This document shows, in pieces, positions 13,550 through 31,700 of a stretch of 64,000 nt of DNA. Source of the DNA: an uncultured Alphaproteobacteria bacterium (lineage in GTDB: Bacteria; Pseudomonadota; Alphaproteobacteria; Rs-D84); the NCBI GenBank assembly GCA_934276735.1, contig CAKQTG010000001.1, positions 350,134-414,133 on the forward strand. Reading direction: 5' to 3'. Numbering within the stretch: position 1 is the first letter of the stretch; every line of letters begins with the position of its first letter. The notes under the pieces were generated by a model. That model made no database searches. It was given only the letters and a program-made list of their open reading frames with translations, and was not told where the DNA came from. Made by a program: the position numbers and the translations under genes.

Positions 13550-13637
13550 AGGGAAAACACCAACACGGAATTTGGACCAACATCACCGCCATAACGGGAA
13601 ACGGGCCCAAGTAAAAAGGGAAAGAAAGGAAAGAACG

Positions 13638-14813
13638 ATGAAAATAAAGAACATAGCTTTTTCTGGATTTATGGCGGCGATAATGTTGTCGGCTGGGGCC
13701 ACGGCGGCTAATGCCAAAATTGAAATCGCCAGCCGTCAATATGTTGATAAGATTGACAAGGCGACCACAGAAAAGATTACTAATTTGACCACAACAGTCG
13801 AAGGCAAGGCCGATAAAACCACGGTGAACGAATTGCAACAAAATGTTACCAATTTGTCCACGACGATTGATGGCAAGGCGGACGCGGCTGACTTGGATGG
13901 TTACTTGAAATCTGCGGATGCAGAAACAACATATGCCAAGAAAGACGCTGTAACAGGTGCCGAAAATGCTGCGAACGCGGCCAAGGAAGCGGCCGCTGCG
14001 GCCCAGGCCACGGCCAATGAGAACAAAACGGCAATCGGTGATGCGCAATCTGGTTTGACCAAGGGTGTCGCCGACGCGGCCCAGGCTGCCGCCGCCGCCG
14101 CCGCCGCCGCCGCCGCTGCAGACACCAGGGCCGGTAATGCTGCAACAGCTGCATCAACCGCCCAGAATACTGCAGTTTCTGCAAAGTCAACAGCGGAGGC
14201 GAACAAGGCTGCAATAGAAAATGAAACAACTGGTTTGGCTGCAACTAAAACGATTGCAGATAATGCTGCATCTGCTGCCGCAAAAAATGCCGGTGATATA
14301 ACCCAATTGAAAACAGACATCTCTGGCAAAGAAGATTCTAAAAACAAAATTACGGAAATTACCGATGTGAATTCTGGCTCGAACGAATTGTTCCCGACCG
14401 TTGGTGCGGTTATGAAGAAGATTTCAGGTCTGTCAGAATTGCCGGTCAACCCCAGCTTGATTGAAGATGGCACTTTGGATGGCTCTAAATTAAAAGATGG
14501 CACAGTTACAAAGACAAAGTTGTCTTCGGATGTTCAAACAACATTGGATAATGCCCAGACCGCCGAAGAAGTCACAGCTGCCATTACCGCGGCATTAAAT
14601 GGCTATACCAATACCGACGATTTGAACGCGGAATTGGCGAAAAAGGCGAATTCTGACGATGTTTACAATAAAACACAGGTCAATGAAAAATTTAACAAAA
14701 CTATTCCAACCCCAGAGGGCCCATGTGCTGCCGAATCCGGTCGTTGTGTTCTGTCTGTTGATAAGGCAACCAATGGCATGATGTGGATGGATGTAACCGC
14801 CCCATTGGAATAA
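13638..14813 (+). CDS. Secreted coiled-coil/fibre-like protein (fibre paralog P2)
   Basis: The track ORF is trimmed to ATG 13638 (RBS AAAGGAAAG). Signal peptide ...ATAANA, then IEIASRQYVD. Periodic ITNLTTTVEGKADKTTV / VTNLSTTIDGKADAADL repeats, a poly-Ala run, and the C-terminal module IPTPEGPCAAESGRCVLSVDKATNGMMWMDVTAPLE. Confidence 0.8.
   Translation: MKIKNIAFSGFMAAIMLSAGATAANAKIEIASRQYVDKIDKATTEKITNLTTTVEGKADKTTVNELQQNVTNLSTTIDGKADAADLDGYLKSADAETTYAKKDAVTGAENAANAAKEAAAAAQATANENKTAIGDAQSGLTKGVADAAQAAAAAAAAAAAADTRAGNAATAASTAQNTAVSAKSTAEANKAAIENETTGLAATKTIADNAASAAAKNAGDITQLKTDISGKEDSKNKITEITDVNSGSNELFPTVGAVMKKISGLSELPVNPSLIEDGTLDGSKLKDGTVTKTKLSSDVQTTLDNAQTAEEVTAAITAALNGYTNTDDLNAELAKKANSDDVYNKTQVNEKFNKTIPTPEGPCAAESGRCVLSVDKATNGMMWMDVTAPLE
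14088..14111 (+). repeat. (GCC)8 trinucleotide microsatellite inside P2 (poly-Ala)
   Basis: Eight perfect GCC units encode part of AAAAAAAAAAAA. Confidence 0.95.
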
Positions 14814-14883
14814 GCGAACCAGTCAACCAAAGATTTAAACAAACAAAATAAAAACAATAAACAAAAAAAGAAAGGAAAAAAAC

Positions 14884-16113
14884 ATGAAAAAATTAACCGC
14901 TGGAATATTTACAGTATTGCTGGGTGTTGTTGCGGCAAACTCGGCTGACGCAGCCCTGACATCACAAAAATACGTTGATGCAAAGGTGAAAGTGAACGCT
15001 GATGCGATTGCTGATTTGACAACAACTGTCGGGAACAAGGCTGATGCTTCGACTGTTACAGATTTATCTGAAAAAGTTACAGCAAATACAGGTGCGATCG
15101 CCAAAAAAGCAGACCAAACAGCCATGGAAACAGCATTGGCAGGAAAACAGCAGAAGTTGAATTCTACAAACTTCAAGAAAGATGGCACTGGTAACGTTAT
15201 CTCTGGTGTAACAGTTGATGAATCTGGTAATGTTACATTTGAAACATCCACCGTTGCAACCGCAGAAGGTTTGGAGAATTTGACAAATACAGTTGCTGAA
15301 CATACCACGGCATTGGGTACATTAAACGGCACCGCTGAAACCACTGGTTCTGTTGCAAACAAAATTGCTGCTGCAATTACAGCTGAAACAACACGTGCCG
15401 ATGGTGCATACGATGCCAAGGGCGCAGCCACCACAGCGGAAACAAATGCCAAGGCATACGCAGATGGTTTAGCCAAGAACTATGCAACCGCTGACCAAGG
15501 TAAAAAAGCCGATTCTGCTTTGCAAAAGACGGGGACATTGACCGCGGGTAATCTGCTGACGACGGATGAAAGTGGTAACATAATTGATGCAGGTAAAAAG
15601 GGTGCATTGGCGGCATTGGATACCGTAGACAAGGCGAATTTGAGTGAAGGTGTTCAGGCTTCGTTGGGCAAGGCAGATTCTGCGTTACAGGCAGCGGCTC
15701 TGAATGATTATGCAAAAACAACTGATGTAGCGGCAACATATGAAACAATTACAAATTCCAATGCAATCAAGAATACCGCTGACGCCAACAAGGCTGCAAT
15801 CGCAACTTTGAATGGAACAGGTGATGGTTCTGTGTCCAAGGCTGTTGCGGATGCCAAAACTGAATTGACAACAGCGATTGGTAAGAAACAAAATACTTTA
15901 ACTGCTGCTGATGTAACAGTAAGTGGTGGCGGTAATGTTATCACCGGTATTACTGCGGCTGATGGGAAAATTACAGCGACATTGGGAACAACATTGGGTG
16001 CTTTGGCAACAGCTGCGCCGGGCGAATGCAGCGAAGCAACCAAGTTCTGTGCGTTGACATTTAATGGCACAACTTATAAATGGGAAGTCATTGAACGTGT
16101 AGATGGTGAATAA
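14884..16113 (+). CDS. Secreted coiled-coil/fibre-like protein (fibre paralog P3)
   Basis: 409 aa. Signal peptide ...ANSADA, then ALTSQKYVD. Repeats: IADLTTTVGNKADASTV, AKKADQTAM, GKKADSAL, GKADSAL. C-terminal module AAPGECSEATKFCALTFNGTTYKWEVIERVDGE. Confidence 0.8.
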   Translation: MKKLTAGIFTVLLGVVAANSADAALTSQKYVDAKVKVNADAIADLTTTVGNKADASTVTDLSEKVTANTGAIAKKADQTAMETALAGKQQKLNSTNFKKDGTGNVISGVTVDESGNVTFETSTVATAEGLENLTNTVAEHTTALGTLNGTAETTGSVANKIAAAITAETTRADGAYDAKGAATTAETNAKAYADGLAKNYATADQGKKADSALQKTGTLTAGNLLTTDESGNIIDAGKKGALAALDTVDKANLSEGVQASLGKADSALQAAALNDYAKTTDVAATYETITNSNAIKNTADANKAAIATLNGTGDGSVSKAVADAKTELTTAIGKKQNTLTAADVTVSGGGNVITGITAADGKITATLGTTLGALATAAPGECSEATKFCALTFNGTTYKWEVIERVDGE

Positions 16114-16202
16114 ATAAAAAATACTGTGTCGGGGGCGGGGGATTCCCCGACACAGGTTCAGGGATTGTGGTTAAAATATAAAAATAAAAAGGTTTTAGGG
16201 TT

Positions 16203-17645
16203 ATGAAAAAATTATCTGGATTGTTAGCTGTTTCATTGATTGCGATTATGATGGCACCCGCGGCCCGTGCAGACATCGCATCAACCGGGTTTGTCACAAC
16301 AGCATTGAATGGTAAAGAAAACGTAACGAATAAGGTAACTAATGCATCTGGTTACACAGATGATATAACATCGCCAGATAAGTATCCGAGTATGGCAGTA
16401 GCGAATGATATGGTAAAGCAGGCGGTTAAATCGGTGAACGATGCAAAGCTGGATGAGGTTTTTGATAAATCACTGAACAATGTAATGGTAACCGATGCCG
16501 CCGGAGTTGTGAGTCCATCTGAGATTAAGACGGACGGTTCAGGTAATGCAGTTACTGGCATTGAGGTTAAGAATGGTGTATATACCCTGAACAAGGAGAC
16601 AACGTTCGCGACCAAGGAACAGTTGGGTACGACAGACACAAACGTTACGAATTTGACGACTCGTGTTTCTACGGCCGAGGGGACGATCAAAACATTGAAA
16701 ACAAGCAAGCAGGATAATTTGACCGCTGGCACCGGTATCAAGATTGAGAATAATACAATCAGCACGGATGGATTGGCAACTGATGCCGATTTAACAACGT
16801 TGCAGGCAACCGTTGCAGGGCATACGACAGCTATTGATAAGTTAGATGGCGCGGCTACGGTTACTGGATCTGTAAAACAACAGATTGAGACGGCGAAAAA
16901 TGAATTAACAACAAGTATTGAAGCTAATACAACCGCGGCGGCCAATGCAAAATCAGCGGCAGATGCAGCCCAGGCGACAGCAAATAAGGCAGTTGTGGCC
17001 AATACCGCGATTACAGGTGGCACCAAGACAAAAATTACATATGACGCGAAAGGTTTGGTAACTGGTGGTGCTGACCTGACTGCTGCCGATATCCCGGCGG
17101 GGTTAATCAAGAACGGGACAAATGTCACAGTTTCGCGTAATGCAACGACTGGCGTCGTGACGATTAGTTCGGCGGATACTAAATACACATTGCCAACCGC
17201 GACGGATACAGTCCTGGGTGGTGTAAAGGTTGATACAGCAATGAGTGATACCAGCACGAACCCTGTTCAGAACAAGGTAGCGAATGTGGCCATTGCAGAT
17301 GCGAAGAAAGCGGGTACTGATGCAGCTACCGCGGCGGCCAATGCAAAATCAGCGGCAGATGCAGCCCAGGCGACAGCAAATAAGGCAGTTGTGGCAAATA
17401 CCGCGATTACAGGTAACACCAAAACAAAAATTACATATGACGCGAAGGGGCTGGTAACTGGTGGTTCTGACCTGACTGCGGACGATATCCCGGCATTGGA
17501 AACGTCCAAGATTACTGGGTTGGATACGGCATTGGCGGGTAAAATTCCTGTGCCATCGGAGACTAATTCAAAGGGTACCTTGGTATTGACATATAATACC
17601 ACTACGCAAAAATATGCATGGGAATCAATTGGTCGTGGTGATTAA
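16203..17645 (+). CDS. Secreted tail-fibre-like repeat protein (fibre paralog P4)
   Basis: 480 aa. Signal peptide ...PAARA, then DIASTGFV. Two copies of AAANAKSAADAAQATANKAVVANTAITG.TKTKITYDAKGLVTGG.DLTA.DIP, then SKITGLDTALAGKIPVPSE...TTQKYAWESIGRGD. Confidence 0.8.
   Translation: MKKLSGLLAVSLIAIMMAPAARADIASTGFVTTALNGKENVTNKVTNASGYTDDITSPDKYPSMAVANDMVKQAVKSVNDAKLDEVFDKSLNNVMVTDAAGVVSPSEIKTDGSGNAVTGIEVKNGVYTLNKETTFATKEQLGTTDTNVTNLTTRVSTAEGTIKTLKTSKQDNLTAGTGIKIENNTISTDGLATDADLTTLQATVAGHTTAIDKLDGAATVTGSVKQQIETAKNELTTSIEANTTAAANAKSAADAAQATANKAVVANTAITGGTKTKITYDAKGLVTGGADLTAADIPAGLIKNGTNVTVSRNATTGVVTISSADTKYTLPTATDTVLGGVKVDTAMSDTSTNPVQNKVANVAIADAKKAGTDAATAAANAKSAADAAQATANKAVVANTAITGNTKTKITYDAKGLVTGGSDLTADDIPALETSKITGLDTALAGKIPVPSETNSKGTLVLTYNTTTQKYAWESIGRGD
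16305..16626 (+). repeat. 322-bp cassette shared between P4 and P5 (copy in P4)
   Basis: It matches 18061-18382 with only 5 mismatches by eye, all of them non-synonymous. Confidence 0.9.
16932..17098 (+). repeat. Intragenic 167-bp direct repeat in P4, copy 1
   Basis: ACCGCGGCGGCCAATGCAAAATCAGCGGCAGATGCAGCCCAGGCGACAGCAAATAAGGCAGTTGTGGC... recurs at 17328-17494 with a handful of substitutions. Confidence 0.9.
17328..17494 (+). repeat. Intragenic 167-bp direct repeat in P4, copy 2
   Basis: See copy 1 at 16932-17098. Confidence 0.9.
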
Positions 17646-17699
17646 TGTTTGATTTTTGTGGTGCGGACGGATTTGTCTGTGCGCACCATGGAAATAGAC

Positions 17700-17728
17700 T
17701 TGTCACAATGTGACGAATTTGGTATCAT
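17700..17728 (+). promoter_or_regulatory. Candidate promoter of P5 with overlapping palindrome
   Basis: TTGTCA, 17-nt spacer, TATCAT. The -35 region lies within the inverted repeat TGTCACA-A-TGTGAC, a possible operator. Confidence 0.4.
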
Positions 17729-17763
17729 AGTTCAGAGAGATTAAATATACAGAATGTAGCGTT

Positions 17764-18531
17764 ATGAGATGTGTTAAAAGTATCTTTACCGTTTCGATTT
17801 TTGCCATGTTGATTGCAACCGGTGCGCGTGCGGAAATTGTGTCCAAGACACAACTTGATAGCACGATTGTTGCTGGCACAAATGTTACGATTGAAAAGCC
17901 AACATCGGGCACAAACAGTGGCAAAATTGTTATCAGTGCCACGGATACGAATACGACATATACCACCGGAACCGAGACTTATTCTGGGACAACAAAGTTG
18001 TATACCGCGACAGGCGATAGCACCGACGGAACAATGACCCGTGGCGCAATTACAACGGCGTTGAATGGTAAAGAAAACGTAACGAATAAGGTAACTAATG
18101 CATCTGGTTACACAGATGATATAACATCGTCAGATAAGTATCCGAGTATGGCAGTAGCGAATGATATGGTAAAGCAGGCGGTTAAATCGGTGAACGATGC
18201 AAAGCTGGATGAGGTTTTTGATAAATCACCGAACAATGTAATGGTAACCGATGCCGCCGGAGTTGTGAGTCCATCTGAGATTAAGACGAACGGTTCAGGT
18301 AATGCAGTTACTGGCATTGAGGTTAAGAATGGTGCATATACCCTGAACAAGGAGACAACGTTCGCGACCAAGGCACAGTTGGATGCCTTGGACAGCACGT
18401 CCACAGGCACGGGGGCGGTTGTGACGAATGTTACCCAGACAGATGGCAAGGTCACGGTGACCAAGGGAAATGTCCAGGTTCCAGTTGGATCATCAACGGC
18501 GACAACATATGCCGCGATTTGGATTGAATAA
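17764..18531 (+). CDS. Secreted fibre-like protein (fibre paralog P5, short)
   Basis: 255 aa. Signal peptide ...TGARA, then EIVSKTQLD. The central 107 aa are almost identical to P4 residues about 35-141. C-terminus: VQVPVGSSTATTYAAIWIE. Confidence 0.8.
   Translation: MRCVKSIFTVSIFAMLIATGARAEIVSKTQLDSTIVAGTNVTIEKPTSGTNSGKIVISATDTNTTYTTGTETYSGTTKLYTATGDSTDGTMTRGAITTALNGKENVTNKVTNASGYTDDITSSDKYPSMAVANDMVKQAVKSVNDAKLDEVFDKSPNNVMVTDAAGVVSPSEIKTNGSGNAVTGIEVKNGAYTLNKETTFATKAQLDALDSTSTGTGAVVTNVTQTDGKVTVTKGNVQVPVGSSTATTYAAIWIE
18061..18382 (+). repeat. 322-bp cassette shared between P4 and P5 (copy in P5)
   Basis: See 16305-16626. Confidence 0.9.
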
Positions 18532-20498: not shown

Positions 20499-22295
20499 AT
20501 GAGCCAAAAGAACATCAGAAACTTTGCAATTGTTGCCCATATTGATCACGGTAAATCGACGTTGTCGGACCGGTTGATTGAATATACCGGTGGCCTGCAA
20601 TCGCGCGAGATGAAGGCCCAAGTCCTGGATTCTATGGATATTGAACGCGAACGTGGCATTACGATAAAGGCCCAGACGGTGCGTCTGAATTACCGCGCAC
20701 ACGATGGGCAAACATATCAACTGAATTTAATGGATACGCCGGGACACGTGGACTTTTCTTACGAGGTGTCGCGCAGTCTGGCCGCATGCGAGGGGGCGTT
20801 GGTTCTGGTTGACGCAACCCAGGGTGTCCAGGCGCAAACGCTGGCAAATGCATATTTAGCGTTGGATAATGATTTGGAAATGTTGCCGGTGCTGAACAAG
20901 ATTGATTTACCGTCCAGCGATGTTGCGGCGACGCGTGAACAAATTGCCGATGTTATTGGGCTGGACGCCGCGAACGCGATGTGTGTATCGGGCAAAACGG
21001 GGGCGGGCGTGCCCGAATTATTGGAAGAAATCGTTCATAAATTACCTGCGCCACATGGTGATGAAAATGCGCCGACGCGCGCGCTGTTGGTGGATTCGTG
21101 GTATGATTCTTATTTGGGCGTGGTGATTTTGGTGCGTGTGGTTGATGGGAAATTATCACGCGGGCAAAAGATAAAATTCTTGGCCACGGGGGCAGAATAT
21201 ACGGTTGAAAAAATCGGATACTTTACACCCAAGATGGTTGACGCGGCCGCGCTGGATACCGGCGAAATCGGATTTATTATTACCGGGATGAAGACAATTC
21301 ACGATTGTCGCGTGGGCGATACGATTGTCGATGCGAAATCGGCCGATGTGGCCGACGCGTTGCCGGGGTTCAAGCCATCGGTGCCGGTGGTATTTTCGTC
21401 GTTCTTTCCGGTATCTGCTGATGACTATCCTAATTTGCGCGACAGTGCGGAAAAGTTGGCGTTAAATGATGCGTCATTTATGTTCACAACGGAAAAGTCG
21501 TCTGCGCTGGGGTTTGGGTTGCGCTGTGGATTCTTGGGACTGTTGCATATGGAAATTATCAGCGAACGCCTGGCGCGTGAATTTAATCTGACGCTGATAA
21601 ACACGGTGCCCAGTGTGTTATACAAGGTGCATTTGCGTGACGGCACGACGATTGATTTGGAAAATCCGGCGGATATGCCTGAATTGACCAAGATTGAATC
21701 CATCGAAGAACCATGGGTGCGCGCAACGATTATGATGCCTGATAAATACATGGGCGGAATTATGTCCCTGTGTTCAGAGCGGCGCGGAATCCAGGAAAAT
21801 ATTTCCTATGTCGGGAATCGTGCGGTTCTGGTATATCAATTACCGCTGGCGGAAATCGTGTTTGATTTCTATGATCGGGTGAAATCTATATCGTCGGGGT
21901 ATGCGTCGTTTGACTATGTCGTGAACGGATACCAGCTGTCTGATTTGGTCAAGGTATCGATTCTGGTCAATGATGAAAATGTAGAGCCGCTGTCGTTTAT
22001 GTGCCATCGCAGTTTCGCGGAAAAGCGTGGTCGCCAGATTGTTGAAAAACTGAAAGATTTAATTCCGCGTCACCAGTTCAAGATACCACTGCAGGCGGCA
22101 ATCGGTGGCAAAATTATTGCGCGTGAAACAATCGCCGCGTATCGCAAGGATGTTACGGCGAAATGTTATGGCGGGGATATCACCCGTAAACGCAAACTGT
22201 TAGAGAAGCAGAAGGAGGGAAAAAAGCGTATGCGGACATTCGGTAATGTCGAAATCCCGCAGAGCGCATTTATCAATGCACTGAAAGTGTCATAG
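20499..22295 (+). CDS. lepA: Translation elongation factor 4 (LepA)
   Basis: 598 aa. [29 protein letters not shown], and a characteristic LepA C-terminal domain ending ...[26 protein letters not shown]. Confidence 0.95.
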
Positions 22296-22316: not shown

Positions 22317-22664
22317 ATGCTGATTGATAAATTGACCTATTACCTGGTAACAAGCAAAGACGCGCGCGTCGCAGATAAATATATCTATGAACGTATCAAG
22401 GATAAAGAGCAAGAAAGTATTCAACGGGCAGAATTGGCATACAAAAATATGATGCGTGGCACCCCGGAATGCCATTGTATTGGTTTTGATGCGTCTGGGA
22501 TGAAGGAACGCTGCCAACACTACAAGGATAACAGACCGTGTGATAATTCCAAGTGTGCGCTGTATGGCGACAATATGGAATATTATGAGGCGCGTCAAAA
22601 AATGGCATGCTATGCTGCATTGCGTCGTGACTTCTGGAAAACGGGCAAGAAACACCAAAAATAA
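22317..22664 (+). CDS. Hypothetical small Cys-containing protein, IKYYL-family paralog a (1 module)
   Basis: 115 aa with no signal peptide. N-terminus MLIDKLTYYLVTSKDARVADK. Cys module ECHC...C-x8-C-x4-C-ALY...YYEARQK...DFW. The RBS AAAGGAG is 22 nt after the lepA stop. Confidence 0.7.
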   Translation: MLIDKLTYYLVTSKDARVADKYIYERIKDKEQESIQRAELAYKNMMRGTPECHCIGFDASGMKERCQHYKDNRPCDNSKCALYGDNMEYYEARQKMACYAALRRDFWKTGKKHQK

Positions 22665-22693
22665 AAAGTCGGATTAAAACGCGGGGGATTGAA

Positions 22694-23473
22694 ATGTTGT
22701 TCAAAACGATAAAATATTACCTGGCAACAAATGCAGAAATGCGTGCGGCGGATCGTGCGGCGTTTCGCGCATTGTGGAATGATATGCAGAAAAAACGCAT
22801 AAAACTGGAAGAGGTCAAGACCGAATTGTCGCATCGCGGTGGATGTGTGCATCGCTATTTGAAAAAGCCCGGTGGAATTTGGAGTGAAATATTGCCTGGC
22901 AAAATTGTAGAGAAGCATTGTGAGAGGTTTTGGATTTTTTCTTATAATGACGGATGTTTGGAAAAAACATGTATGTATTACCCCGAGTATGTAAAGTATC
23001 GCGATGTGTATCGTGAGTATGCCAAGGCCAAGGAAGATGTAAAAGCATTTTGGGAAGATAGAAAGGTATCACGTATCGAGGTCGCCAAGTATCCAAACAG
23101 TCCTGCAGCCCAGACAGCAATAGATACCCTGGACGCCCAATGTGCGGATTTGTATCGCGAACTTGAACAGGCCCGGCAGGCAATAACTTGTTATGAATTC
23201 GCTACGCCAGAGTGGGTGCTCCCACGGAAAAACGGCTGTTTTGTAGATGTGTCGTATAGTTCTAAATCATTTGACACCAGTGATGATTACCCGGGAATGA
23301 TATGGTCACGAATGGAACACTGTCCGGAATTTAGTGTGCCATGCACACGCGTCGATTGTTATTACAGGGCGCGAAATCAACACTATGCCAATGTTCGGGC
23401 GCAATACAGAAAGGCGTGCGAGGCATACAGATTGATGACGGAACGCGAGTGGAAACCATTAAATGAACGCTAA
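22694..23473 (+). CDS. Hypothetical Cys-containing protein, IKYYL-family paralog b (2 modules)
   Basis: 259 aa. N-terminus MLFKTIKYYLATNAEMRAADR. Modules: GGCVHRY...C-x11-C-x4-C-MYY...FW and NGCFVDVSY...C-x6-C-x4-C-YY...EW. RBS GGGGGA. Confidence 0.7.
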   Translation: MLFKTIKYYLATNAEMRAADRAAFRALWNDMQKKRIKLEEVKTELSHRGGCVHRYLKKPGGIWSEILPGKIVEKHCERFWIFSYNDGCLEKTCMYYPEYVKYRDVYREYAKAKEDVKAFWEDRKVSRIEVAKYPNSPAAQTAIDTLDAQCADLYRELEQARQAITCYEFATPEWVLPRKNGCFVDVSYSSKSFDTSDDYPGMIWSRMEHCPEFSVPCTRVDCYYRARNQHYANVRAQYRKACEAYRLMTEREWKPLNER

Positions 23474-23489
23474 GTTCAAGGGGGCGAAA

Positions 23490-24245
23490 ATGATGTTGAA
23501 AAGAATTAAATATTATTTGAATACGGATGCCACACAGCGTGCGCAAGATAGGGCGGATTTTAAACAGTTGGTCCATGATGCCAAGGAAAAAGAGGCGCGT
23601 GTAAAGGATATGGAACATGCGCTGGTATGCAGTGGCGAGCATATTGGGGCGACACGCGGAATATTTGATGATTTACTGGATAATACAGATACGCGTTGCG
23701 CGGCGTTCCAGCCAGAAATACAGGGGCCGTGCATGGATAAAGAATGTCCGTATCTGGGTGAAAATCATAAATATTTTGACGCGTTTCGTGCGTATGGGAC
23801 GGCCCTGGTCAGGGAAAAGGAATTCTGGCCAGAGCGTTGTGCGTTGCGTATTGCCCAGGCGGCGCGTGCCCGGCAAGAACGGAATACGGAAATTGCACAT
23901 TTAAATGCGCAATGCGCCGATTTGGAAAATGAATTGACGTTGGCGAAATCTGCGATATCGACACATGTGTGTATCAATCCAAACAGTGGCCCGCTGGTAA
24001 AAATGGGCTGCTTTGTGTCGGCGTATTATGGGGCTGGTGATTGGCCAATATTGGGCCTGGATGAACCATCGCACAGTTTTACTGTAAATGAAAAATGCAC
24101 AAAATTTGCGATGCCATGCGAACGCAATTGCCCATATCGCGAGAAAAATGCGCATTATGCCGATGTTTTAAATCGCTATGATGCGGCATGTGCGGCATAT
24201 CGTGCGATTGCTGGCAAGGATTGGATATCAACAAAAACAAAATAA
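23490..24245 (+). CDS. Hypothetical Cys-containing protein, IKYYL-family paralog c (2 modules)
   Basis: The track ORF 23463 is trimmed to ATG 23490 (RBS AAGGGGG). N-terminus MMLKRIKYYLNTDATQRAQDR. Modules: C-x10-C-x4-C-PY...FW and MGCFVSAYY...C-x6-C-x3-C-PY...DW. It shares L(D/N)AQCADL with paralog b. Confidence 0.7.
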   Translation: MMLKRIKYYLNTDATQRAQDRADFKQLVHDAKEKEARVKDMEHALVCSGEHIGATRGIFDDLLDNTDTRCAAFQPEIQGPCMDKECPYLGENHKYFDAFRAYGTALVREKEFWPERCALRIAQAARARQERNTEIAHLNAQCADLENELTLAKSAISTHVCINPNSGPLVKMGCFVSAYYGAGDWPILGLDEPSHSFTVNEKCTKFAMPCERNCPYREKNAHYADVLNRYDAACAAYRAIAGKDWISTKTK

Positions 24246-24261
24246 CAATTGGGGGACGATT

Positions 24262-24696
24262 ATGAATTTTTTTGCCAAAATAAAATATTATTTAACAACC
24301 AGTGCCGCCCAGCGCGCACAAAATAGTGCCGTGTTGGAAGACCTGGAACTGAAATGTTTCGAGACGGGGCGTGACATGGAACAGGCGCGCGAGGCGTTGC
24401 GTATCGTGGCCGATGGAATGTCCCAAACAGAAGTTTTAAGAAAGGCGTGTGTTGTATATCTGACGTATCCGAACAATATGTTGGGCGGAGATGACCTGAG
24501 CAGATATACACCCATGTTGGTAAGGGAGAATAATTGTCGGTATTTTGCCGAAGGCGACAAAAAATGTCCGCGCAAGGACTGTGCCTTTTATGAAAAAAAT
24601 ATCGCATATTTTGCGGCCAAGGACCGCTATGACGCCGCCGTTGCTGCACGTGATGCGTTTTTGGCACGTGCAACGGGGCGCGCTAAAAACAAATAA
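24262..24696 (+). CDS. Hypothetical Cys-containing protein, IKYYL-family paralog d (1 module)
   Basis: The track ORF 24178 is trimmed to ATG 24262 (RBS GGGGGA). N-terminus MNFFAKIKYYLTTSAAQRAQN. Module: KACVVYL...C-x9-C-x4-C-AFY...YFAAKDRY. Confidence 0.7.
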   Translation: MNFFAKIKYYLTTSAAQRAQNSAVLEDLELKCFETGRDMEQAREALRIVADGMSQTEVLRKACVVYLTYPNNMLGGDDLSRYTPMLVRENNCRYFAEGDKKCPRKDCAFYEKNIAYFAAKDRYDAAVAARDAFLARATGRAKNK

Positions 24697-24708
24697 AGGA
24701 TTAAATAA

Positions 24709-25101
24709 ATGAACATTAAAAAAATAAAATATTGGCTGAAAACGCCGGCTGGTGTTCGACGCCAGAACGCGGGCGAATATCGCACGCTGTGTATGAAATA
24801 TGGGGTTGCAAAAAATAAATATGCCCGTGCATTAAACCGGATTAGTGTTGATTTGGATTATTACGAAGATCCGGCCGACGTATCTGGTTGTGTAAAGTTT
24901 AAGATTCTGGAAAAGGTGCCGGGTGTTAAATACACAACAACACACACATGCCCGCACTTTATTCACGGTGTTTCGTGCAATCAACAGAATTGCCCGTTGC
25001 GCCCCGCGAATAATGAGTGCGCAAAATTGTACACTGTATGCGAATTGGCACTGAATAAAAAAGCAATATTTTGGGAAAATATATACAGTAAGGTAAGATA
25101 A
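24709..25101 (+). CDS. Hypothetical Cys-containing protein, IKYYL-family paralog e (1 module)
   Basis: 130 aa. N-terminus MNIKKIKYWLKTPAGVRRQN. Module: SGCVKFK...C-x8-C-x4-C-PL...IFWENIY. RBS AAAGGA. Confidence 0.7.
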   Translation: MNIKKIKYWLKTPAGVRRQNAGEYRTLCMKYGVAKNKYARALNRISVDLDYYEDPADVSGCVKFKILEKVPGVKYTTTHTCPHFIHGVSCNQQNCPLRPANNECAKLYTVCELALNKKAIFWENIYSKVR

Positions 25102-25102
25102 A

Positions 25103-25519
25103 ATGTTGATACAGAAGTTGAAATATTATTTAAAGACATCTGCGGCCCAGCGTGCGCATGACAGACGAGATTACCAGGCGGTCTTGAATCATTATGATGA
25201 TGCGTTGGCGGATTTGAAAGTGGCGCGCGATGCGATGACCGCGGTGGTTGACGACAAAGAAACGGCCGACGACACATGGGCGTGCGTTGTTGAATACACA
25301 TATCAATCGCCAATGGCGGGGGCAATTATGGGATTGCGTTCTGCACCACTGACAGCGCGCGAAGATTGTTGTTTCTTGAACGAAGAAGGTTGTTGTATTT
25401 TTAGTGGTTGCAAAAATCATGGTAAAAATGTGCGCTATTTTTACCAGAAAAAAATTTTGGATTTTTGGCGTCAAAAACGTGATACCTTTTGGGCCCAGAA
25501 ATACGCAAATGTAAAATAA
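25103..25519 (+). CDS. Hypothetical Cys-containing protein, IKYYL-family paralog f (1 module)
   Basis: 138 aa. The ATG is 1 nt after the stop of paralog e. N-terminus MLIQKLKYYLKTSAAQRAHDR. Module: WACVVEY...CC-x6-CC-x4-C...YFYQKKILDFW...FW. Confidence 0.7.
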   Translation: MLIQKLKYYLKTSAAQRAHDRRDYQAVLNHYDDALADLKVARDAMTAVVDDKETADDTWACVVEYTYQSPMAGAIMGLRSAPLTAREDCCFLNEEGCCIFSGCKNHGKNVRYFYQKKILDFWRQKRDTFWAQKYANVK

Positions 25520-25543: not shown

Positions 25544-26539
25544 ATGGCGCACCAGTTCTTTTTTAATCCGTTCATATTGGACAACCTGCCGGCACCCAGT
25601 GCGGGTTTTGATGTTGTTCAGGATTTGTCAGAACCGCGTTTACGCATGTATGTGACCAGCCGTGGGGTCAAGACGTTCTTTGTTCGTCATCGTGTGCGTG
25701 GGCGCGATCGTCGCTTTATCATCGGAAATTATCCGGATATGGATATCGAAGATGCGCGCAGTGCCGTGGCTGACATTTTGGCGCGTGCTGATGCACCGGT
25801 GCCGACGCGTCGTCGCAAAATTAAATTTTCAAAATTTGTTGATTTGTATATGACGAATCGCGTGCGTCGCGTGCCGGCGTCGCGTGAAAAATTGCGTCGT
25901 GCGATAACGCGCCATCTGGGGCGTCTGGCGGATAAAAACATGTCCGATATTACGCGCGATGATTGTGAACGTGTGATATCAAATATCGATGGCGTTGCAA
26001 TACGTGGTCGCATGCAGGAATTATTACAGAGCATGTTCGCATATGCCGCAGAAAACGGGTACGTGGAAAACATAATTTCTGATTTGCCCAAGGTCGCGCA
26101 AAACCGTCGTGTGCGTCCGCTGAACATATTTGCGTTTCATCAATTGATGGATTCGATAAATGCGGAAAAATCACCTGTTCTGCGTGCGGCGTTTTTGATG
26201 TTGGTGTATGGATTTGCGCCAAAGTCACGCGTGTTTGCAATGCAGTGGCGTGACCTGGATTTCAATCATTATATGTGGAACGATATGCCACTGTCAGACC
26301 AGGCGGTTGTGCTGTTACAGGATTTGCCGCAAAATGGTCGCTGGGTTTTCCCGGGGCGTGGCCGTGGGCATTTGACCGATCCACGTCGTGCGTGGCGTGC
26401 GGTTGCGGTTGCGGCTGGAATACCGACACTGACTATGGATGATGTTCATAAATTTTTAATGCGCAGATTGGTCTGGTCGCCTGACCGCGAAGATTTTCGC
26501 GAAAATATGAATTCTGTGCTGAACGAAATTATGGCCTAA
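25544..26539 (+). mobile_element. Tyrosine recombinase (P4-like integrase family), probably degenerate or inactive
   Basis: The N-terminal arm-binding-type segment (LPAPSAGFDVVQDLSEPRLRMYVTSRGVKTFFVRHRVRGRDRRFIIGNYPDMDIEDAR) and core-binding region are recognisable. In the C-terminal part, the expected HxLRRT box reads MDDVHKFLMRR, and no LGH...Y catalytic-Tyr box precedes the stop. At 331 aa it is short for the family. Confidence 0.6.
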
Positions 26540-26673: not shown

Positions 26674-26907
26674 ATGACAACTTTTGAAAAAGTAAAAAAA
26701 ATCGTAGCTGAAAAACTGAATGTCAAAGAAGACACAATCACAGAAGCTTCTACATTCGTCAACGATTTGGGTGCTGATTCTTTGGATGTTGTAGAATTCG
26801 TTATGGAAGTTGAAAAAGAATTCGATATTACAATTCCTGACGAAGAAGCTGCAAAGCTGAACACAGTTGGTGATGCTGTTAAGTACATCGAAGCGCACCA
26901 GAAATAA
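26674..26907 (+). CDS. acpP: Acyl carrier protein
   Basis: 77 aa. The phosphopantetheine site is [19 protein letters not shown]. Confidence 0.95.
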
Positions 26908-27030: not shown

Positions 27031-28281
27031 ATGAGAAGAGTCGTTATTACCGGTATGGGTATTGTATCGCCGTGCGGCACAGGTGTTGAGGTTGCATGGA
27101 AAAATGTTGTCGCAGGAAATTCTGGGATTCGTAAAATTGATACGTTTGATGCATCAATGCTGGCAACACAGATTGCGGGTTTGCCAATTCACGGGACAGA
27201 ACCAGGTCAATATAATCCCGAGGCTGTGCTGAATCCAAAAGAATTGCGCAAAATGGATAAATCAATTGTATACGGTGTTGTTGCCGCGGACGAGGCATTG
27301 CGTGATGCGGGACTGATTGATTATGACGGGGACAAGGAACGTTTTGGCGTGTCTGTGGGGGCTGGTATCGGCGGCCTGACGTCTATTTATGAAAATTGTA
27401 TTGAATTGTATAATGGCGGTCCGCGTCGCATCAGCCCGTTCTTTATTCCAAAATCTATTATCAATATGACGGCTGGTCACATTTCTATTAAATACGGATT
27501 AAAGGGCCCAAATCTGGCGGTGGTGACGGCGTGTGCGACTGGTGCTCATTCTATTGGCGAGGCTGCGCGTCTGATTGAACACGGCGATGCTGACATTATG
27601 GTTGCTGGTGGAACCGAAGGCGCGATTGACGTAATAGGCATTGCTGGGTTTAATGCAATGAAGGCATTGTCCACACGTAATGATAATCCGGCGGCGGCGT
27701 CACGTCCGTGGGATAAAGACCGCGATGGTTTCGTTATGTCCGAAGGTGCCGGCATTTTAATTCTGGAAGAATACGAACACGCCGTTGCACGTGGTGCCAA
27801 AATTTATGCCGAGGTTGCTGGATACGGCCTGTCGGGTGACGCGTATCACATCACTGCGCCGGCCGAAGGGGGCGAGGGCGGTCTGCGCGCAATGCGTGCG
27901 GCATTAAATGACGCCGGACTGAACCCGTCAGACGTTGATTATATAAACGCGCACGGCACATCAACGGGATTGGGCGACATTGGCGAATTGATGGCGGTTA
28001 AAAGCCTGTTTGGTGACGCGCCGGTATCAATGTCATCAACTAAATCTGTGACGGGACACCTGTTGGGTGCCGCCGGCGCGGTAGAGGCGATATTCTGCAC
28101 GCTGGCGATTCGTGACGGCGTTGTGCCACCAACAATCAACCTGGAAAATCCAGAAGATGCAGTTGGCGACTTTGACCTGGTGCCAAATGTGGCCAAGAAA
28201 CGCAAAGTTGATGTTGCAATCAGCAACAGTTTCGGATTTGGCGGAACAAACGCATCGTTGGTCTTGAAACGTGTAAAGTAA
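27031..28281 (+). CDS. fabF: 3-oxoacyl-ACP synthase II
   Basis: 416 aa. Active-site Cys context VVTACATGAHSIGEA. His motifs INAHGTSTGLGD and SSTKSVTGHLLGAAG. C-terminus NSFGFGGTNASLV. Confidence 0.93.
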   Translation: MRRVVITGMGIVSPCGTGVEVAWKNVVAGNSGIRKIDTFDASMLATQIAGLPIHGTEPGQYNPEAVLNPKELRKMDKSIVYGVVAADEALRDAGLIDYDGDKERFGVSVGAGIGGLTSIYENCIELYNGGPRRISPFFIPKSIINMTAGHISIKYGLKGPNLAVVTACATGAHSIGEAARLIEHGDADIMVAGGTEGAIDVIGIAGFNAMKALSTRNDNPAAASRPWDKDRDGFVMSEGAGILILEEYEHAVARGAKIYAEVAGYGLSGDAYHITAPAEGGEGGLRAMRAALNDAGLNPSDVDYINAHGTSTGLGDIGELMAVKSLFGDAPVSMSSTKSVTGHLLGAAGAVEAIFCTLAIRDGVVPPTINLENPEDAVGDFDLVPNVAKKRKVDVAISNSFGFGGTNASLVLKRVK

Positions 28282-28294
28282 AAGGCGGTGGCGT

Positions 28295-28513
28295 ATGAGT
28301 AAGTCTGTCAAATCCGTATTGACGTTTGTGGTGCTTTTTGTGCTTTTATTAGTTGGGGAACTGATAAAGGCTGCATTTGGCGATTTTTCTATGTCCGGCA
28401 TTGATGTGTTGGCTGTCGCGCTGGCGATTTATATGTGGGGCTTTTTTGAACTGATCCCAAACAAGATTGCTGGCAAGACATGGAGTGACGTCCGCAGTAA
28501 AAAAGCAAACTAA
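28295..28513 (+). CDS. Small two-TM membrane protein, hypothetical
   Basis: 72 aa with two hydrophobic helices. It starts 14 nt after the fabF stop, and a terminator follows. Confidence 0.45.
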   Translation: MSKSVKSVLTFVVLFVLLLVGELIKAAFGDFSMSGIDVLAVALAIYMWGFFELIPNKIAGKTWSDVRSKKAN

Positions 28514-28538
28514 AAAACGCCCGAACGGGCGTTTTTTA
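28512..28538. terminator. Bidirectional terminator
   Basis: AAAAAACGCCC-GAA-CGGGCGTTTTTT. An identical sequence recurs at 29784-29809. Confidence 0.75.
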
Positions 28539-29546
28539 TTTGTTCAGTTCAGAACGTAATTTTTCCAATTTTTGCAACGCGTCGCATGCGTCTGCCTCGT
28601 GGGGTTCTGTGCCATATATATAGTGTTTGATGTTTGTATAATCCCAATTTGGCGTGATGCACAGTGCCTGTTCCTGGGTCAGTGTTACGTAATTATGCGT
28701 AATTTCGCGTCCGTCACGGTCGGCGACTTGCTTTTGTGCGATGTCAACGGCTATACCGCCATCTTCGGAAACGACGATAATGCTGTTTATGCGACGGGCA
28801 CAGATTTTATGTTGTTCCAGTTTAATTGTCTGGGTGCATGCGCCAGCGAAACTCGATGCACTGGGGTCCCGGGCCACATATATATTCTCTGATGGCAGAT
28901 ATCCGACAACAATACCATTGGTGCCCAAATAATCCACGGTATCAAAGCCTTCTCTGTCGGTAACAGCGGATATTGTTTGTGGTGCCGATATGCCATTGTC
29001 CATGCATATTATGTTGCTATCATTTGGACATTTAACCAGTGTTATATATTCGTATGCGGCGTTACGAAAGTTCGGGCAACTTAGATAAATTTCTTGCCCG
29101 TTATCGCATTTTTTCATTGCCGTGTCACAATTGTTCGTAATGTCACCGGCACGACGGACAGGAACGCCGTCTTTGAAATCTGCGGGGACAAATGTTGTTG
29201 TGTAATTATACCTTGGGCCGCCTGAATTCGTAATATATTTAAAAAGCACAATTTTATTTTCGGTGTCATATATTCCATGGATTGTAAATGTTTGGTCATC
29301 GTATGTGCAATCCCATGCTAATTCTGGTTGAATTGCATCATTGTTGTCATCCATTATCCCCCGGGGAACTAATTTTATATCCTGGCCGTGTATGGTCGCG
29401 ATAACATTATCAACATCATATATGCGCAGTGTGATTGGTCCGGTCAAGTCCCCCAACGCAGCCTCGGGCCGCAGCACCGTTGTGGCGATTGGGCGGTCGC
29501 ACGCGGCCAGTATCAGTGCAAACAGCACGGTAAGTATTTTTTTCAT
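28536..29546 (-). CDS. Cys-rich lipoprotein, hypothetical
   Basis: The track ORF is trimmed to ATG 29546 (RBS GGGGGA). MKKILTVLFALILAAC has a lipobox. 336 aa, with no recognisable family. Confidence 0.6.
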   Translation of the reverse strand: MKKILTVLFALILAACDRPIATTVLRPEAALGDLTGPITLRIYDVDNVIATIHGQDIKLVPRGIMDDNNDAIQPELAWDCTYDDQTFTIHGIYDTENKIVLFKYITNSGGPRYNYTTTFVPADFKDGVPVRRAGDITNNCDTAMKKCDNGQEIYLSCPNFRNAAYEYITLVKCPNDSNIICMDNGISAPQTISAVTDREGFDTVDYLGTNGIVVGYLPSENIYVARDPSASSFAGACTQTIKLEQHKICARRINSIIVVSEDGGIAVDIAQKQVADRDGREITHNYVTLTQEQALCITPNWDYTNIKHYIYGTEPHEADACDALQKLEKLRSELNK

Positions 29547-29783
29547 TTGTGTTCCCCCTTGGTTATATAAACAAAATGCCACCAAAAAAATTGGTGGGTT
29601 GGAGTTTAAGCACAATCAGAAAGGATTGCGTGTCTTATTCAATATATTCGACACACCCCAACCCCAATCAATTGGGTTGGCGATTTTTTTCGTCATCACT
29701 GACGCTTTCTGATGGGTGCTTAAACCCAGTGCGGCAACACGCCACACGTGCGAATTATATCATAATGGATTTTTGTCGCCAAT

Positions 29784-31640: not shown

Positions 31641-31700
<60 letters not shown>

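Follow-up and report, generated by a model that had tools for sequence, protein, structure and literature searches.

The window (the whole stretch of 64,000 nucleotides that was analysed) contains a tandem array of small genes directly downstream of lepA, which we assign to one family, referred to as X. The array is followed by an integrase-like gene, named int*, so that the slot reads rbfA-lepA-[X units]-integrase-like gene-acpP-fabF. The features are as follows:

20499-22295, + strand: lepA (EF4), which anchors the slot on its upstream side (ORF call; the orthologues match Pfam GTP_EFTU, EFG_C and LepA_C)
22317-22664, + strand: X-a, 115 aa, single unit with a short head (ORF and HMM domain); Cys residues 54, 66, 75 and 80, with codon starts at 22476, 22512, 22539 and 22554
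22694-23473, + strand: X-b, 259 aa, two units fused in frame (two HMM domains), b1 at 22694-23068 and b2 at 23069-23470
23490-24245, + strand: X-c, 251 aa, two units fused in frame (HMM, BLASTP), c1 at 23490-23840 and c2 at 23841-24242
24262-24696, + strand: X-d, 144 aa, single unit, alternative ATG at 24178; Cys residues 63, 92, 102 and 107; the protein modelled by AF2
24709-25101, + strand: X-e, 130 aa, single unit, pI 9.5, the most basic paralogue
25103-25519, + strand: X-f, 138 aa, single unit, beginning 1 nt past the X-e stop
25544-26539, + strand: int*, a P4/CP4-57-type tyrosine recombinase derivative, the downstream anchor of the slot
26674-26907, + strand: acpP, housekeeping acyl carrier protein, a conserved downstream neighbour
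27031-28281, + strand: fabF, a conserved downstream neighbour
28511-28538, bidirectional: the first strong intrinsic terminator past lepA (12-bp stem with 5 GC pairs, T-runs on both strands)

The six co-directional ORFs at 22317-25519 described in the first-pass annotation were recovered by our ORF calls with the same lengths. The array starts 22 nt past the lepA stop (22295), as reported there, a purine-rich RBS stands ahead of every start, and the intergenic gaps from X-a to X-f are 29, 16, 16, 12 and 1 nt, within the 1-30 nt claimed earlier. X-c has a second possible start at an upstream ATG (23463), and its orthologues elsewhere are called at 251 or 260 aa. The family HMM found exactly eight domains in these ORFs, matching the earlier count of eight modules in six genes, and 0 further domains in the rest of the 64 kb window. 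The proposed paralogy was confirmed by all-against-all BLASTP, which joined all eight units (for example b1-c1 at 3e-18, b2-c2 at 3e-18 and d-f at 1e-15), with b1 and c1, and b2 and c2, as reciprocal best matches. The four Cys columns are invariant across the eight units, and the N-terminal motif of b2 is decayed (KYPNSPAAQTA) but still present. The array arose via tandem amplification in place. Neither flanking repeats nor an adjacent tRNA were found at the array, and its GC content is 0.42-0.48 vs. 0.45-0.51 in surrounding windows.

As had been noted before, a terminator search found none convincing within the array, where there are just weak stems of 5-6 bp, and none between lepA and the array. 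Judging from the sequence, the array is probably co-transcribed with lepA, and the terminator after fabF is the probable end of the array-containing transcription unit(s). The earlier statement that TM segments and signal peptides are absent also held: the maximum Kyte-Doolittle score over 19 residues was 0.85, GRAVY values were -0.45 to -1.0, and no Sec or Tat signal was found in the X proteins, which are predicted to be soluble and cytoplasmic. In a check for pseudogenes, the frames of orthologues in other strains were intact with dN/dS of 0.08-0.67, indicating that the X genes are functional genes and that each X allele is under purifying selection. The dN/dS was 0.05-0.16 for X-a (orthologues in other strains) and ~0.3 for X-b.

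Profile searches of Pfam, PHROGs, NCBIfam, PADLOC and PDB sequences gave no match, in agreement with the view that the family is undescribed. An exhaustive profile search (E ≤ 1e-3) gave 316 cluster representatives among 1.84 billion proteins. Of 142 single-unit homologues, 140-142 retain the four cysteines, and these columns do not vary in alignment A4 (136 sequences); their spacing across the family is C-x(10-36)-C-x(5-14)-C-x4-C. The metal site previously suggested from these cysteines is plausible because they are retained in distant homologues. Both termini are conserved (KY..KT at the N-terminus and FW..K..K at the C-terminus), 128 of 136 sequences (94%) end in K or R, and the median net charge is +7. 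Searches of phage, plasmid and viral collections yielded no X. It is a clade-restricted family at a single chromosomal slot of uncultured gut and rumen Alphaproteobacteria, and it appears to be inherited vertically.

We mapped the neighbourhood of X, since the first-pass annotation had asked whether the family always adjoins lepA or an integrase. All 11 look-ups starting from a family member led to the same slot. So did 52 of the 62 loci reached through the neighbouring int*, and the gene order around int* was identical in 80/80 loci found via int*. The slot carriers are gut and rumen Alphaproteobacteria MAGs. The number of X units in the 62 loci was 0 in 15, 1 in 21, 2 in 10, 3 in 4, 4 in 3, 6 in 3, 7 in 1, 8 in 1 and 9 in 4. 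Five of the 15 "zero" loci contain a divergent relative (hhalign probability 93%), and lepA directly abuts an intact int* with no X in 10 of the 62. Wherever the contig reaches beyond the family member, int* lies immediately 3' of X in the same orientation, with a gap of 0-27 nt (24 nt in the window; in locus L110 int* starts directly at the end of X).

In Pfam, int* matched Arm-DNA-bind_3 at 2.7e-07 and gave no match to PF00589. The match to the PHROG_1 integrase (1.6e-26) covers residues 29-292 only, and the PDB match is to the N-terminal domain of a CP4-like integrase. The alignment shows Ala/Pro (non-Arg) at the Arg-I position and DDVH in place of HxxR; the Tyr segment is deleted, and the last 88 aa contain no Tyr and thus no nucleophile. 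The arm-binding and core-binding parts are retained. Given these residues, int* is catalytically dead, and it is old. It is 58-97% conserved across 80 loci with a dN/dS of 0.07-0.11, which indicates purifying selection. The first-pass annotation had regarded the array as cargo of an integrative element, which can be maintained as ancient history only: this is not recent mobile cargo, since int* is dead and old and its sequence is constrained by purifying selection. The gene order, fixed across the clade as lepA-X(n)-int*-acpP-fabF, and the missing tRNA and flanking repeats point the same way. The array resembles integron cassette arrays in its packed co-directional small ORFs, the lack of convincing internal promoters and the adjoining tyrosine-recombinase-family gene. 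However, its gaps of at most 29 nt leave no room for attC, and it has neither an attI/Pc arrangement nor an IntI-type enzyme; its neighbour is the dead P4-type protein downstream. The X genes are mutual paralogues, whereas integron cassettes are unrelated.

The X proteins diverge rapidly: at distances where LepA still shows 93% identity and int* 76%, X is down to at most 33%. Between the closest strains, dN was 0.016-0.07 for X vs. 0.004-0.006 for lepA, and dN ratios put X protein divergence at ~3 to >30 times that of lepA. The dS values against L029 were 0.3-0.5 for X-a and X-b, saturated for X-c and X-d, and 1.6-2.3 for X-e and X-f (lepA, 0.82). The array of a sister species contains only a and c plus a d/f chimera, and P0006 is a mosaic allele. 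We infer that the slot behaves as a diversity-generating locus, in which unit number ranges from 0 to 9, deletions create chimeras, alleles are replaced in mosaic fashion and sequences diverge fast. Positive selection is not demonstrated, because the overall dN/dS of X is below 1; a young lineage-specific family under relaxed constraint would diverge fast as well.

X-d was modelled by AF2 with the 136-sequence alignment (pLDDT 89.8, pTM 0.80). The model has helices at residues 3-12, 15-44 and 110-142 and a small alpha/beta head at 47-109, which places the Cys domain between two long helices. Both the sequence and the length of the head vary. Net charge is approximately +8.6 for the helical regions and -1.8 for the head. 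In this model the two long helices would pack into an antiparallel stalk, with the conserved termini jointly forming a base. The N-terminal motif had been read as a possible shared recognition helix. A detachable recognition or secretion signal is less likely than a structural role for it, as a predicted short helix ahead of stalk helix A, because it would pack against the equally conserved C-terminal FW..K..K. The earlier suggestion of a zinc-ribbon or treble-clef fold was not borne out. Foldseek searches of PDB and BFVD gave no structural neighbour for the model (pLDDT 90), and paired CxxC knuckles would be spaced differently. The four cysteines may bind structural zinc in a Zn(Cys)4 site; an Fe-S cluster is the less likely alternative. 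The best Foldseek matches were non-significant (E of at least 0.3, TM-scores 0.2-0.5) and comprised prefoldin beta, V-ATPase subunit D and F1 gamma. These proteins likewise consist of a long helix, a small globular insert and a second long helix, but they lack the Cys site, and there is no hint of homology. The family and its predicted fold are new, and we regard the descriptive account (family, slot, tandem expansion and predicted fold) as very probably correct.

The diversity-generating behaviour of the slot, together with the conserved base and variable head, led us to propose, as the preferred reading but at a probability of roughly 0.35, that the X units are dimeric binding proteins which diversify as a set and serve in conflict or defence. 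The units would work as parallel dimers, as suggested by the in-frame two-unit genes X-b and X-c. The conserved base would do the same job in every unit, by letting units oligomerise or by anchoring them to an acidic surface or partner, and the variable head would supply specificity. Acting as stoichiometric binding or neutralising proteins in genetic conflict, the units might exclude, or give immunity to, phage or competitor molecules; duplication and divergence would widen the range of targets, and the array would probably be expressed constitutively by read-through from lepA. Against this proposal, genes for defence and immunity tend to be mobile and of mixed families, whereas X is tied strictly to one slot, seems to be passed on vertically and is missing from the phage, plasmid and viral collections. 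The ~100 neighbourhoods showed no cognate toxin, no effector and no enzymatic partner, and PADLOC and Pfam immunity-family searches with X gave no match. The conserved base and basic helical regions of the model would suit nucleic-acid or ACP binding equally well.

The constant position of int* directly behind X, in the same orientation and at such short distance, could instead mean that X is a domesticated partner of int*. It would derive from a small basic accessory gene of the excisionase or directionality-factor type that an ancestral P4-type element carried just ahead of int, and the two proteins would bind DNA together as an architectural or regulatory complex that possibly controls acpP-fabF. 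We consider this rather unlikely. X is small and basic, as are recombination directionality factors, a highly diverse group; X is confined to the int*-carrying clade, and int* retains its arm-type and core-type DNA-binding parts under strong purifying selection. The arrangement also resembles the xis-int pairs of phages and islands, in which an integrase-family gene directly follows a co-oriented gene for a small basic protein. However, int* is unable to catalyse recombination, and it does not need X, as it is intact without X in the 10 loci described above. Amplification to as many as nine units and hypervariability are unexpected for a regulator with a fixed DNA target. The positive charge lies on the helical regions, not on the Cys head, and X, a four-Cys head on a long helical stalk, matches no Xis, AlpA, Cox or HTH family, nor int* itself. 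The basic helical regions could also make X an adaptor for the very acidic ACP. It would then resemble in function the small basic adaptors that bind ACP, and would link acyl-ACP status to another process. One lineage has a 209-aa ACP::X fusion, which is not an assembly artefact because its 90% cluster holds 44 members on many contigs, and a second lineage has a free 108-aa ACP paralogue inside its array. The phosphopantetheine serine (DSL) is still present in each of the two ACP copies; they are 38-48% identical to housekeeping AcpP and 30% to each other, and two independent recruitments would be compatible with their sequences. The slot has acpP as a constant neighbour, but at a distance of ~1.2-2 kb local duplication could explain the recruitment without a functional link, and an ACP copy occurs in the array of just two lineages in ~100 loci. 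This role is quite unlikely: 0-9 copies and hypervariability are not expected of a housekeeping adaptor, X matches neither Complex1_LYR nor any other ACP-partner Pfam family, and the Foldseek match lists contain no ACP-adaptor structure.

Four invariant cysteines in a small, mainly helical, lineage-specific protein with several paralogues per genome would also fit an Fe-S or redox-active Zn-thiolate sensor that serves the transcription machinery as a small cofactor, in the way WhiB-like proteins do in Actinobacteria. Ferredoxin-type cluster motifs feature Cys-Pro; in X, Pro follows Cys4 in 59 of 136 sequences and precedes Cys3 in 47 of 136. The hosts are from anoxic gut habitats, according to sample sources. 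DksA/TraR (C4 coiled-coil) and WhiB-like proteins are, like X, small and soluble with long helices and four Cys ligands, and the latter are also lineage-restricted with several paralogues per genome. Yet X has no sequence or structural match to either, including no Whib match in Pfam, its Cys domain sits between two stalk helices, and its Cys spacing differs from both (WhiB-like pattern, C-x(14-22)-C-x2-C-x5-C). Hypervariability, copy-number change and lineage losses are unusual for core redox regulators, and we judge a sensor role improbable. It is very doubtful that the X proteins are secreted or polymorphic effectors directed at the host or competitors with the conserved termini as export signal. 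The unusual conservation of both termini, including the final K/R, the rapid divergence and variable copy number, and nearby signal-peptide-bearing proteins, possibly on the cell surface, would agree with it. However, X has no Sec/Tat signal or TM segment, secretion-system genes are absent from the window, and X was never found beside toxin domains or secretion loci in the neighbourhoods examined; the termini are co-conserved and lie in confidently predicted helices by the stalk, as would be expected of a folded base more than of a free signal. Tandem paralogues with a conserved N-terminus followed by Cys regions, next to an integrase-like gene, might finally be RiPP-type precursor peptides or decaying prophage remnants, which is scarcely credible. 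The precursor reading is effectively refuted by the size of 115-259 aa and the confident globular model, both unlike leader/core peptides, and by a maturation enzyme in 0 of ~100 neighbourhoods. Pseudogenes or remnants were ruled out by intact frames, dN/dS below 1 and the four Cys invariant across the 316 representatives.

[quoted passage not shown] The rAID-1 type has an apparently intact XerD-like recombinase at its 5' end, integron-like intergenic repeats, low-GC cargo, signs of mobility, and mixed immunity families with cognate toxin-linked homologues elsewhere (bioRxiv 10.1101/471110; PMC12247911). In the X slot, in contrast, the recombinase is at the 3' end, of P4 type and dead, the gaps of 1-29 nt are repeat-free, and all genes belong to one family with no homologue beyond the slot and no sign of mobility. 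The two have in common their occurrence in gut bacteria, small co-directional genes for fast-evolving cytoplasmic proteins beside a tyrosine-recombinase gene, and a variable number of genes.

The first-pass annotation had described six tightly packed, co-directional ORFs behind lepA, each with its own ribosome-binding site, and we confirmed their coordinates, their spacing and the 22-nt distance between the lepA stop codon and the start of the array. The six genes, here called a to f, encode proteins of 115–259 aa from a family of small four-Cys proteins (X), and they are followed by an integrase-like gene (int*).

Genes of the X array and the downstream integrase-like gene (coordinates in the window; a unit is one X domain)
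22317-22664: gene a, array ORF, single unit
22694-23473: gene b, array ORF, two units (b1, b2)
23490-24245: gene c, array ORF, two units (c1, c2)
24262-24696: gene d, array ORF, single unit; its protein was modelled
24709-25101: gene e, array ORF, single unit
25103-25519: gene f, array ORF, single unit
25544-26539: int*, just upstream of acpP-fabF, derivative of a P4/CP4-type tyrosine recombinase

The gaps from a to f measure 29, 16, 16, 12 and 1 nt, and a purine-rich ribosome-binding site precedes every gene. The proposed paralogy also holds: all-against-all BLASTP connects all eight units, four Cys columns are invariant across them, and the family HMM detects eight domains, all in the six array ORFs, with no further member elsewhere in the 64-kb window. 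Since b1 matches c1 and b2 matches c2, the two-unit gene itself appears to have been duplicated, and a decayed N-terminal motif retained in b2 (KYPNSPAAQTA) indicates in-frame fusion of whole units. As originally noted, the array proteins carry no transmembrane segments or signal peptides and no convincing terminator interrupts the array; the first convincing one after lepA lies past fabF, at 28511-28538. No Rfam element was found in the array region, and neither inverted-repeat families nor other repeats were detected between the genes or flanking the array. The GC content of the array (0.42–0.48) is close to that of the surrounding windows (0.45–0.51).

Searches with the six proteins bore out the suggestion of an undescribed family. 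Pfam, PHROGs, NCBIfam and PADLOC gave only chance-level matches (the sole hit in PADLOC-DB, which covers known anti-phage systems, was AbiEii at E = 0.055), a sequence-profile search of PDB sequences came back empty, and a Pfam scan of 136 homologues (E ≤ 1) revealed no recurrent family, including no zinc-finger, Whib, Complex1_LYR or immunity family. Word-indexed homologue searches recovered only close or near-identical orthologues (9 and 6 clusters). The breadth of the family became visible when 1.84 billion cluster representatives were searched exhaustively with HMMER; 316 proteins scored E ≤ 1e-3, and of these 60 reached E ≤ 1e-10. They are mostly 120–145 aa long, and a few contain two units. 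Cys retention in homologues, a check named in the first-pass annotation, proved nearly complete, with the four residues kept in 142, 141, 140 and 141 of 142 single-unit homologues. The consensus reads kY..kT....i.aD..eY..L ... C[IV] ... C..F....pC....Cp....N..Y ... FW..K[FY]...K, 128 of 136 sequences end in K or R, and the median net charge of whole proteins is +7. Close relatives come from MAGs of uncultured Alphaproteobacteria of the human gut (one is labelled Rickettsiales), and remoter ones from rumen and other gut metagenomes; a profile search of genome contigs with the c/b alignment found two species. No relatives were found in IMG/VR viral contigs searched with int* and c-type X alignments, or in phage and plasmid collections searched by tblastn with protein f. 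Searching the literature for the host clade yielded no specific information. X is a new family, with no relative by sequence or fold among the known families and structures searched.

AlphaFold2 modelling of protein d with a 136-sequence alignment gave a confident structure (pLDDT 89.8, pTM 0.80), in which a short helix (residues 3–12) and a long helix (15–44) lead into an alpha/beta head (47–109) that is followed by a long C-terminal helix (110–142). All four Cys lie in the head. Conserved residues concentrate at both termini and at the Cys positions, and the loops of the head differ in sequence and length among homologues. The conserved termini may form the base of an antiparallel stalk. The helical regions carry a net charge of approximately +8.6 and the head approximately −1.8. 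Foldseek searches of the PDB (with two models) and of BFVD found no neighbor, and the predicted fold therefore appears to be new; the weak matches (V-ATPase subunit D, F1 gamma and prefoldin) resemble it only in having a globular insert between two long helices. Zinc ribbons, treble clefs and the C4 fingers of DksA/TraR proteins are built on paired CxxC-type knuckles. In X the spacing is C-x(10-36)-C-x(5-14)-C-x4-C (x4 between the third and fourth Cys in 127 of 136 sequences), no zinc finger recurs in Pfam, and no Foldseek match is better than E = 0.3. Of the earlier idea of a zinc-ribbon-like module, four invariant Cys in a modelled head remain, and the assignment to a zinc ribbon or treble clef found no support. 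The four Cys may bind metal, either as a Zn(Cys)4 site or as an Fe-S cluster.

The window belongs to the core chromosome and contains ppa, efp, fba, tolB, rbfA, lepA, acpP, fabF, mltG, ribosomal protein genes, secY and rpoA. When we mapped the neighborhoods, as the first-pass annotation had proposed, X stood directly after lepA in all 11 family-based look-ups, including members only ∼20% identical to those of the window, and the order rbfA-lepA-X(n)-int*-acpP-fabF was found wherever the contig reached further. A metagenome scan with the int* protein added 80 loci (58–97% identity) with identical gene order around int*. X occupied only the lepA slot, without a toxin neighbor, in these 11 look-ups and 80 loci. 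Copy number was counted in the 62 loci that hold both lepA and int*.

X domains per locus (62 loci)
0 domains: 15 loci
1 domain: 21 loci
2 domains: 10 loci
3 domains: 4 loci
4 domains: 3 loci
6 domains: 3 loci
7 domains: 1 locus
8 domains: 1 locus
9 domains: 4 loci

In 10 of the 15 loci without X, lepA abuts int*. The other five (L051, L080, L094, L101 and L104) have a Cys-rich ORF of 150–177 aa between the two genes, which is a distant relative of X by hhalign (probability 93%, E = 3e-7), although the family HMM finds nothing there.

The N-terminal domain of int* is a CP4/P4-type arm-binding domain (Arm-DNA-bind_3), and precomputed Pfam annotation places a core-binding region (Phage_int_M) in its orthologues. 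PF00589 was not matched in int* at E ≤ 1. When int* was aligned with five orthologues and a phage integrase, the Arg-I position proved to be occupied by Ala or Pro (GFAPKS), the HxxR box to have become DDVH, and the segment with the nucleophilic Tyr to have been deleted (no Tyr occurs in the last 88 residues). Even so, every locus preserves an intact reading frame, purifying selection acts on it (omega 0.07–0.11), and the protein is 62–70% identical across lineages in which BLAST no longer aligns X. This combination of catalytic ruin, purifying selection and conservation marks int*, as judged from its sequence, as an ancient domesticated and catalytically dead recombinase and not as the sign of a present-day mobile element. 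The notion that the array is cargo of an integrative element survives only in the recombinase ancestry of int*; against it stand the inactivity of int*, the lack of a tRNA gene at the array (the nearest lies at 31641) or of flanking repeats, and a GC content near that of the surroundings. Recent genomic-island or prophage cargo was rejected on these grounds, together with the retention of the slot and int* in 80 loci and the lack of an IMG/VR match to int* or c-type X. A descent of X from int* was likewise rejected (hhalign probability 0.1%).

X genes evolve fast yet under purifying selection. Between the closest strains, omega is 0.08–0.67 and dN 0.016–0.07 for X, vs. 0.02 and 0.004–0.006 for lepA, which argues against the pseudogene-like pattern that had been named as a possible refutation. 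At 97% LepA and 90% int* identity, positional X orthologues share 41–83% of their residues; at 93% and 76%, respectively, X identity does not exceed 33%. Relative to locus L029, a and b have a dS of 0.3–0.5 and e and f one of 1.6–2.3, c and d are saturated, and lepA stands at 0.82; such a mosaic within one array suggests that recombination has replaced alleles. The c-type allele P0006 shows directly that divergent alleles recombine, since its flanks match the divergent P0005 and its middle matches the window allele (23490-24245). In the sister species (loci L010 and L014) the array is reduced to a, c and a 158-aa chimera in which d runs into the 3′ end of f; it has no b or e and lacks the greater part of f. 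This species also lacks the GNAT acetyltransferase gene that lies between rbfA and lepA.

Chimera of d and f (158 aa) in the sister species
L010, 10782-11258
L014, 10001-10477

Taken together, the copy numbers, fusions, chimera and mosaics indicate that one slot undergoes changes of copy number, in-frame fusions, unequal deletions and exchange of alleles.

Gut Bacteroidales provide the nearest analogy by behavior, the orphan-immunity array rAID-1 (10.1101/471110; PMC12247911). Those arrays are defined by repetitive intergenic sequences and by cargo of 41% GC or less, low relative to the recombinase (10.1101/471110). In contrast, the X array has no such repeats and a higher GC content, and its recombinase-like gene, at the 3′ end, is of the P4 type and catalytically dead. 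Immunity arrays of the rAID-1 and polymorphic-toxin kinds hold recognized immunity families or toxin-linked cognates, and neither was seen here (Pfam on 136 members; 11 + 80 loci). Integron cassette arrays and xis-int gene pairs offer further analogies. Each integron cassette ends at its 3′ side in an attC site, an imperfect inverted repeat of ∼57–141 bp, whereas the gaps between X genes, 29 nt at most, leave no such element. A functional IntI stands beside attI/Pc at the head of an integron; here a P4/CP4-type gene lies downstream in the same orientation and has lost the catalytic Tyr and HxxR. An integron or rAID-like array was rejected because the region has neither attC-type repeats nor an active recombinase, and the X array in fact shows none of the testable defining features of either system. 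It further differs from both in consisting of one family throughout, with no sign of mobility.

Since the array behaves as a locus that generates diversity, we favor the view that X proteins act in conflict or defence as stoichiometric binding or neutralizing proteins, to which we assign a probability of about one in three. The four Cys would hold a structural metal, and the array would be expressed by read-through from lepA. Units probably pair, given the in-frame two-unit fusions in b and c, and the conserved base probably serves a common function, with the variable head probably providing specificity. Against this reading, X is not mobile, a cognate partner was found nowhere in the neighborhoods inspected, and overall dN/dS is below 1. 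It is rather unlikely that X is instead a domesticated partner of int*: X proteins are small and basic and their genes lie immediately upstream of int* wherever the contig extends, sometimes abutting it, but int* persists without X in 10 of the 62 loci.

A role as ACP-linked adaptor is more doubtful than a partnership with int*, although two lineages speak for it. In one, the last array member recurs with an N-terminal acyl-carrier-protein domain (209 aa; 90% cluster, n = 44); in the other, an extra ACP gene lies inside the array.

Acyl carrier proteins associated with X arrays
L022, 10001-10630 (also L023 and L024): ACP fused to X
L019, 2277-2603 (also L020): free ACP paralogue, 108 aa

Both retain the DSL serine, and each is 38–48% identical to housekeeping AcpP compared with 30% to each other. 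These are, however, the only two lineages among ∼100 loci. LYR-motif (Complex1_LYR) adaptors bind acyl-ACP through a three-helix fold; X showed no match to them: Complex1_LYR did not appear in the Pfam scan of the 136 homologues, and no such structure appeared in the Foldseek lists. An Fe-S or redox sensor working in the WhiB-like mode seems less probable again: the Wbl motif is C-x(14-22)-C-x2-C-x5-C, and X differs from it in Cys spacing and gave no Whib match in Pfam. Secreted effectors are very improbable, below even the sensor. RiPP precursors or pseudogenes are effectively refuted, the former by the length and confident fold of X and by the absence of modifying enzymes from its neighborhoods, the latter by dN/dS.

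Extending the conflict and defence reading, X and the domesticated int* might constitute a previously unknown, chromosomally fixed recognition repertoire. Metal-stabilized, multi-paralogue binding modules, derived from what is left of an old integrase element, would recognize molecules of invading phage or competitors through their variable heads and would diversify at a single slot by tandem duplication, fusion, unequal deletion and allele exchange. We consider this improbable, less so than the ACP adaptor but more so than the partnership with int*. Variable gene sets described so far tend to be mobile and to combine several families. The dynamics of the X locus are unusual in that it is tied to one core-genome slot, yet varies from 0 to 9 copies, replaces alleles and diverges far faster than its neighbors. 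The new family with its predicted fold and invariant putative metal ligands presents a defined target for solving a structure and analyzing metal content, and int* offers a case of recombinase domestication with loss of catalysis and clade-wide purifying selection. These still uncultured hosts are widespread in the guts of humans and ruminants. A fast-evolving locus confined to their lineage could help to mark strains and open a route to studying how they interact with phages, competitors or hosts. At present the locus offers a well-defined lead rather than a mechanism.

Several other features near the array were recorded.

Other features near the array (window coordinates)
11654-18531, plus strand: five co-directional paralogous signal-peptide proteins of 631, 413, 409, 480 and 255 aa
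28295-28513, plus strand: hydrophobic ORF of 72 aa after fabF
28536-29615, minus strand: lipoprotein gene past fabF

The five signal-peptide paralogues share 27–80% mutual identity and their lengths vary between strains. The first has collagen triple-helix repeats, and the group may represent surface or adhesin-like proteins. The 72-aa ORF ends at the terminator at 28511-28538, which is strong, bidirectional and common to this ORF and the convergent lipoprotein gene. In some strains (L001, 16238-18550) the lipoprotein gene (92% identical) lies on the opposite strand and has beside it a Glyco_transf_61 gene that the window lacks, a difference that looks like an inversion or indel polymorphism.
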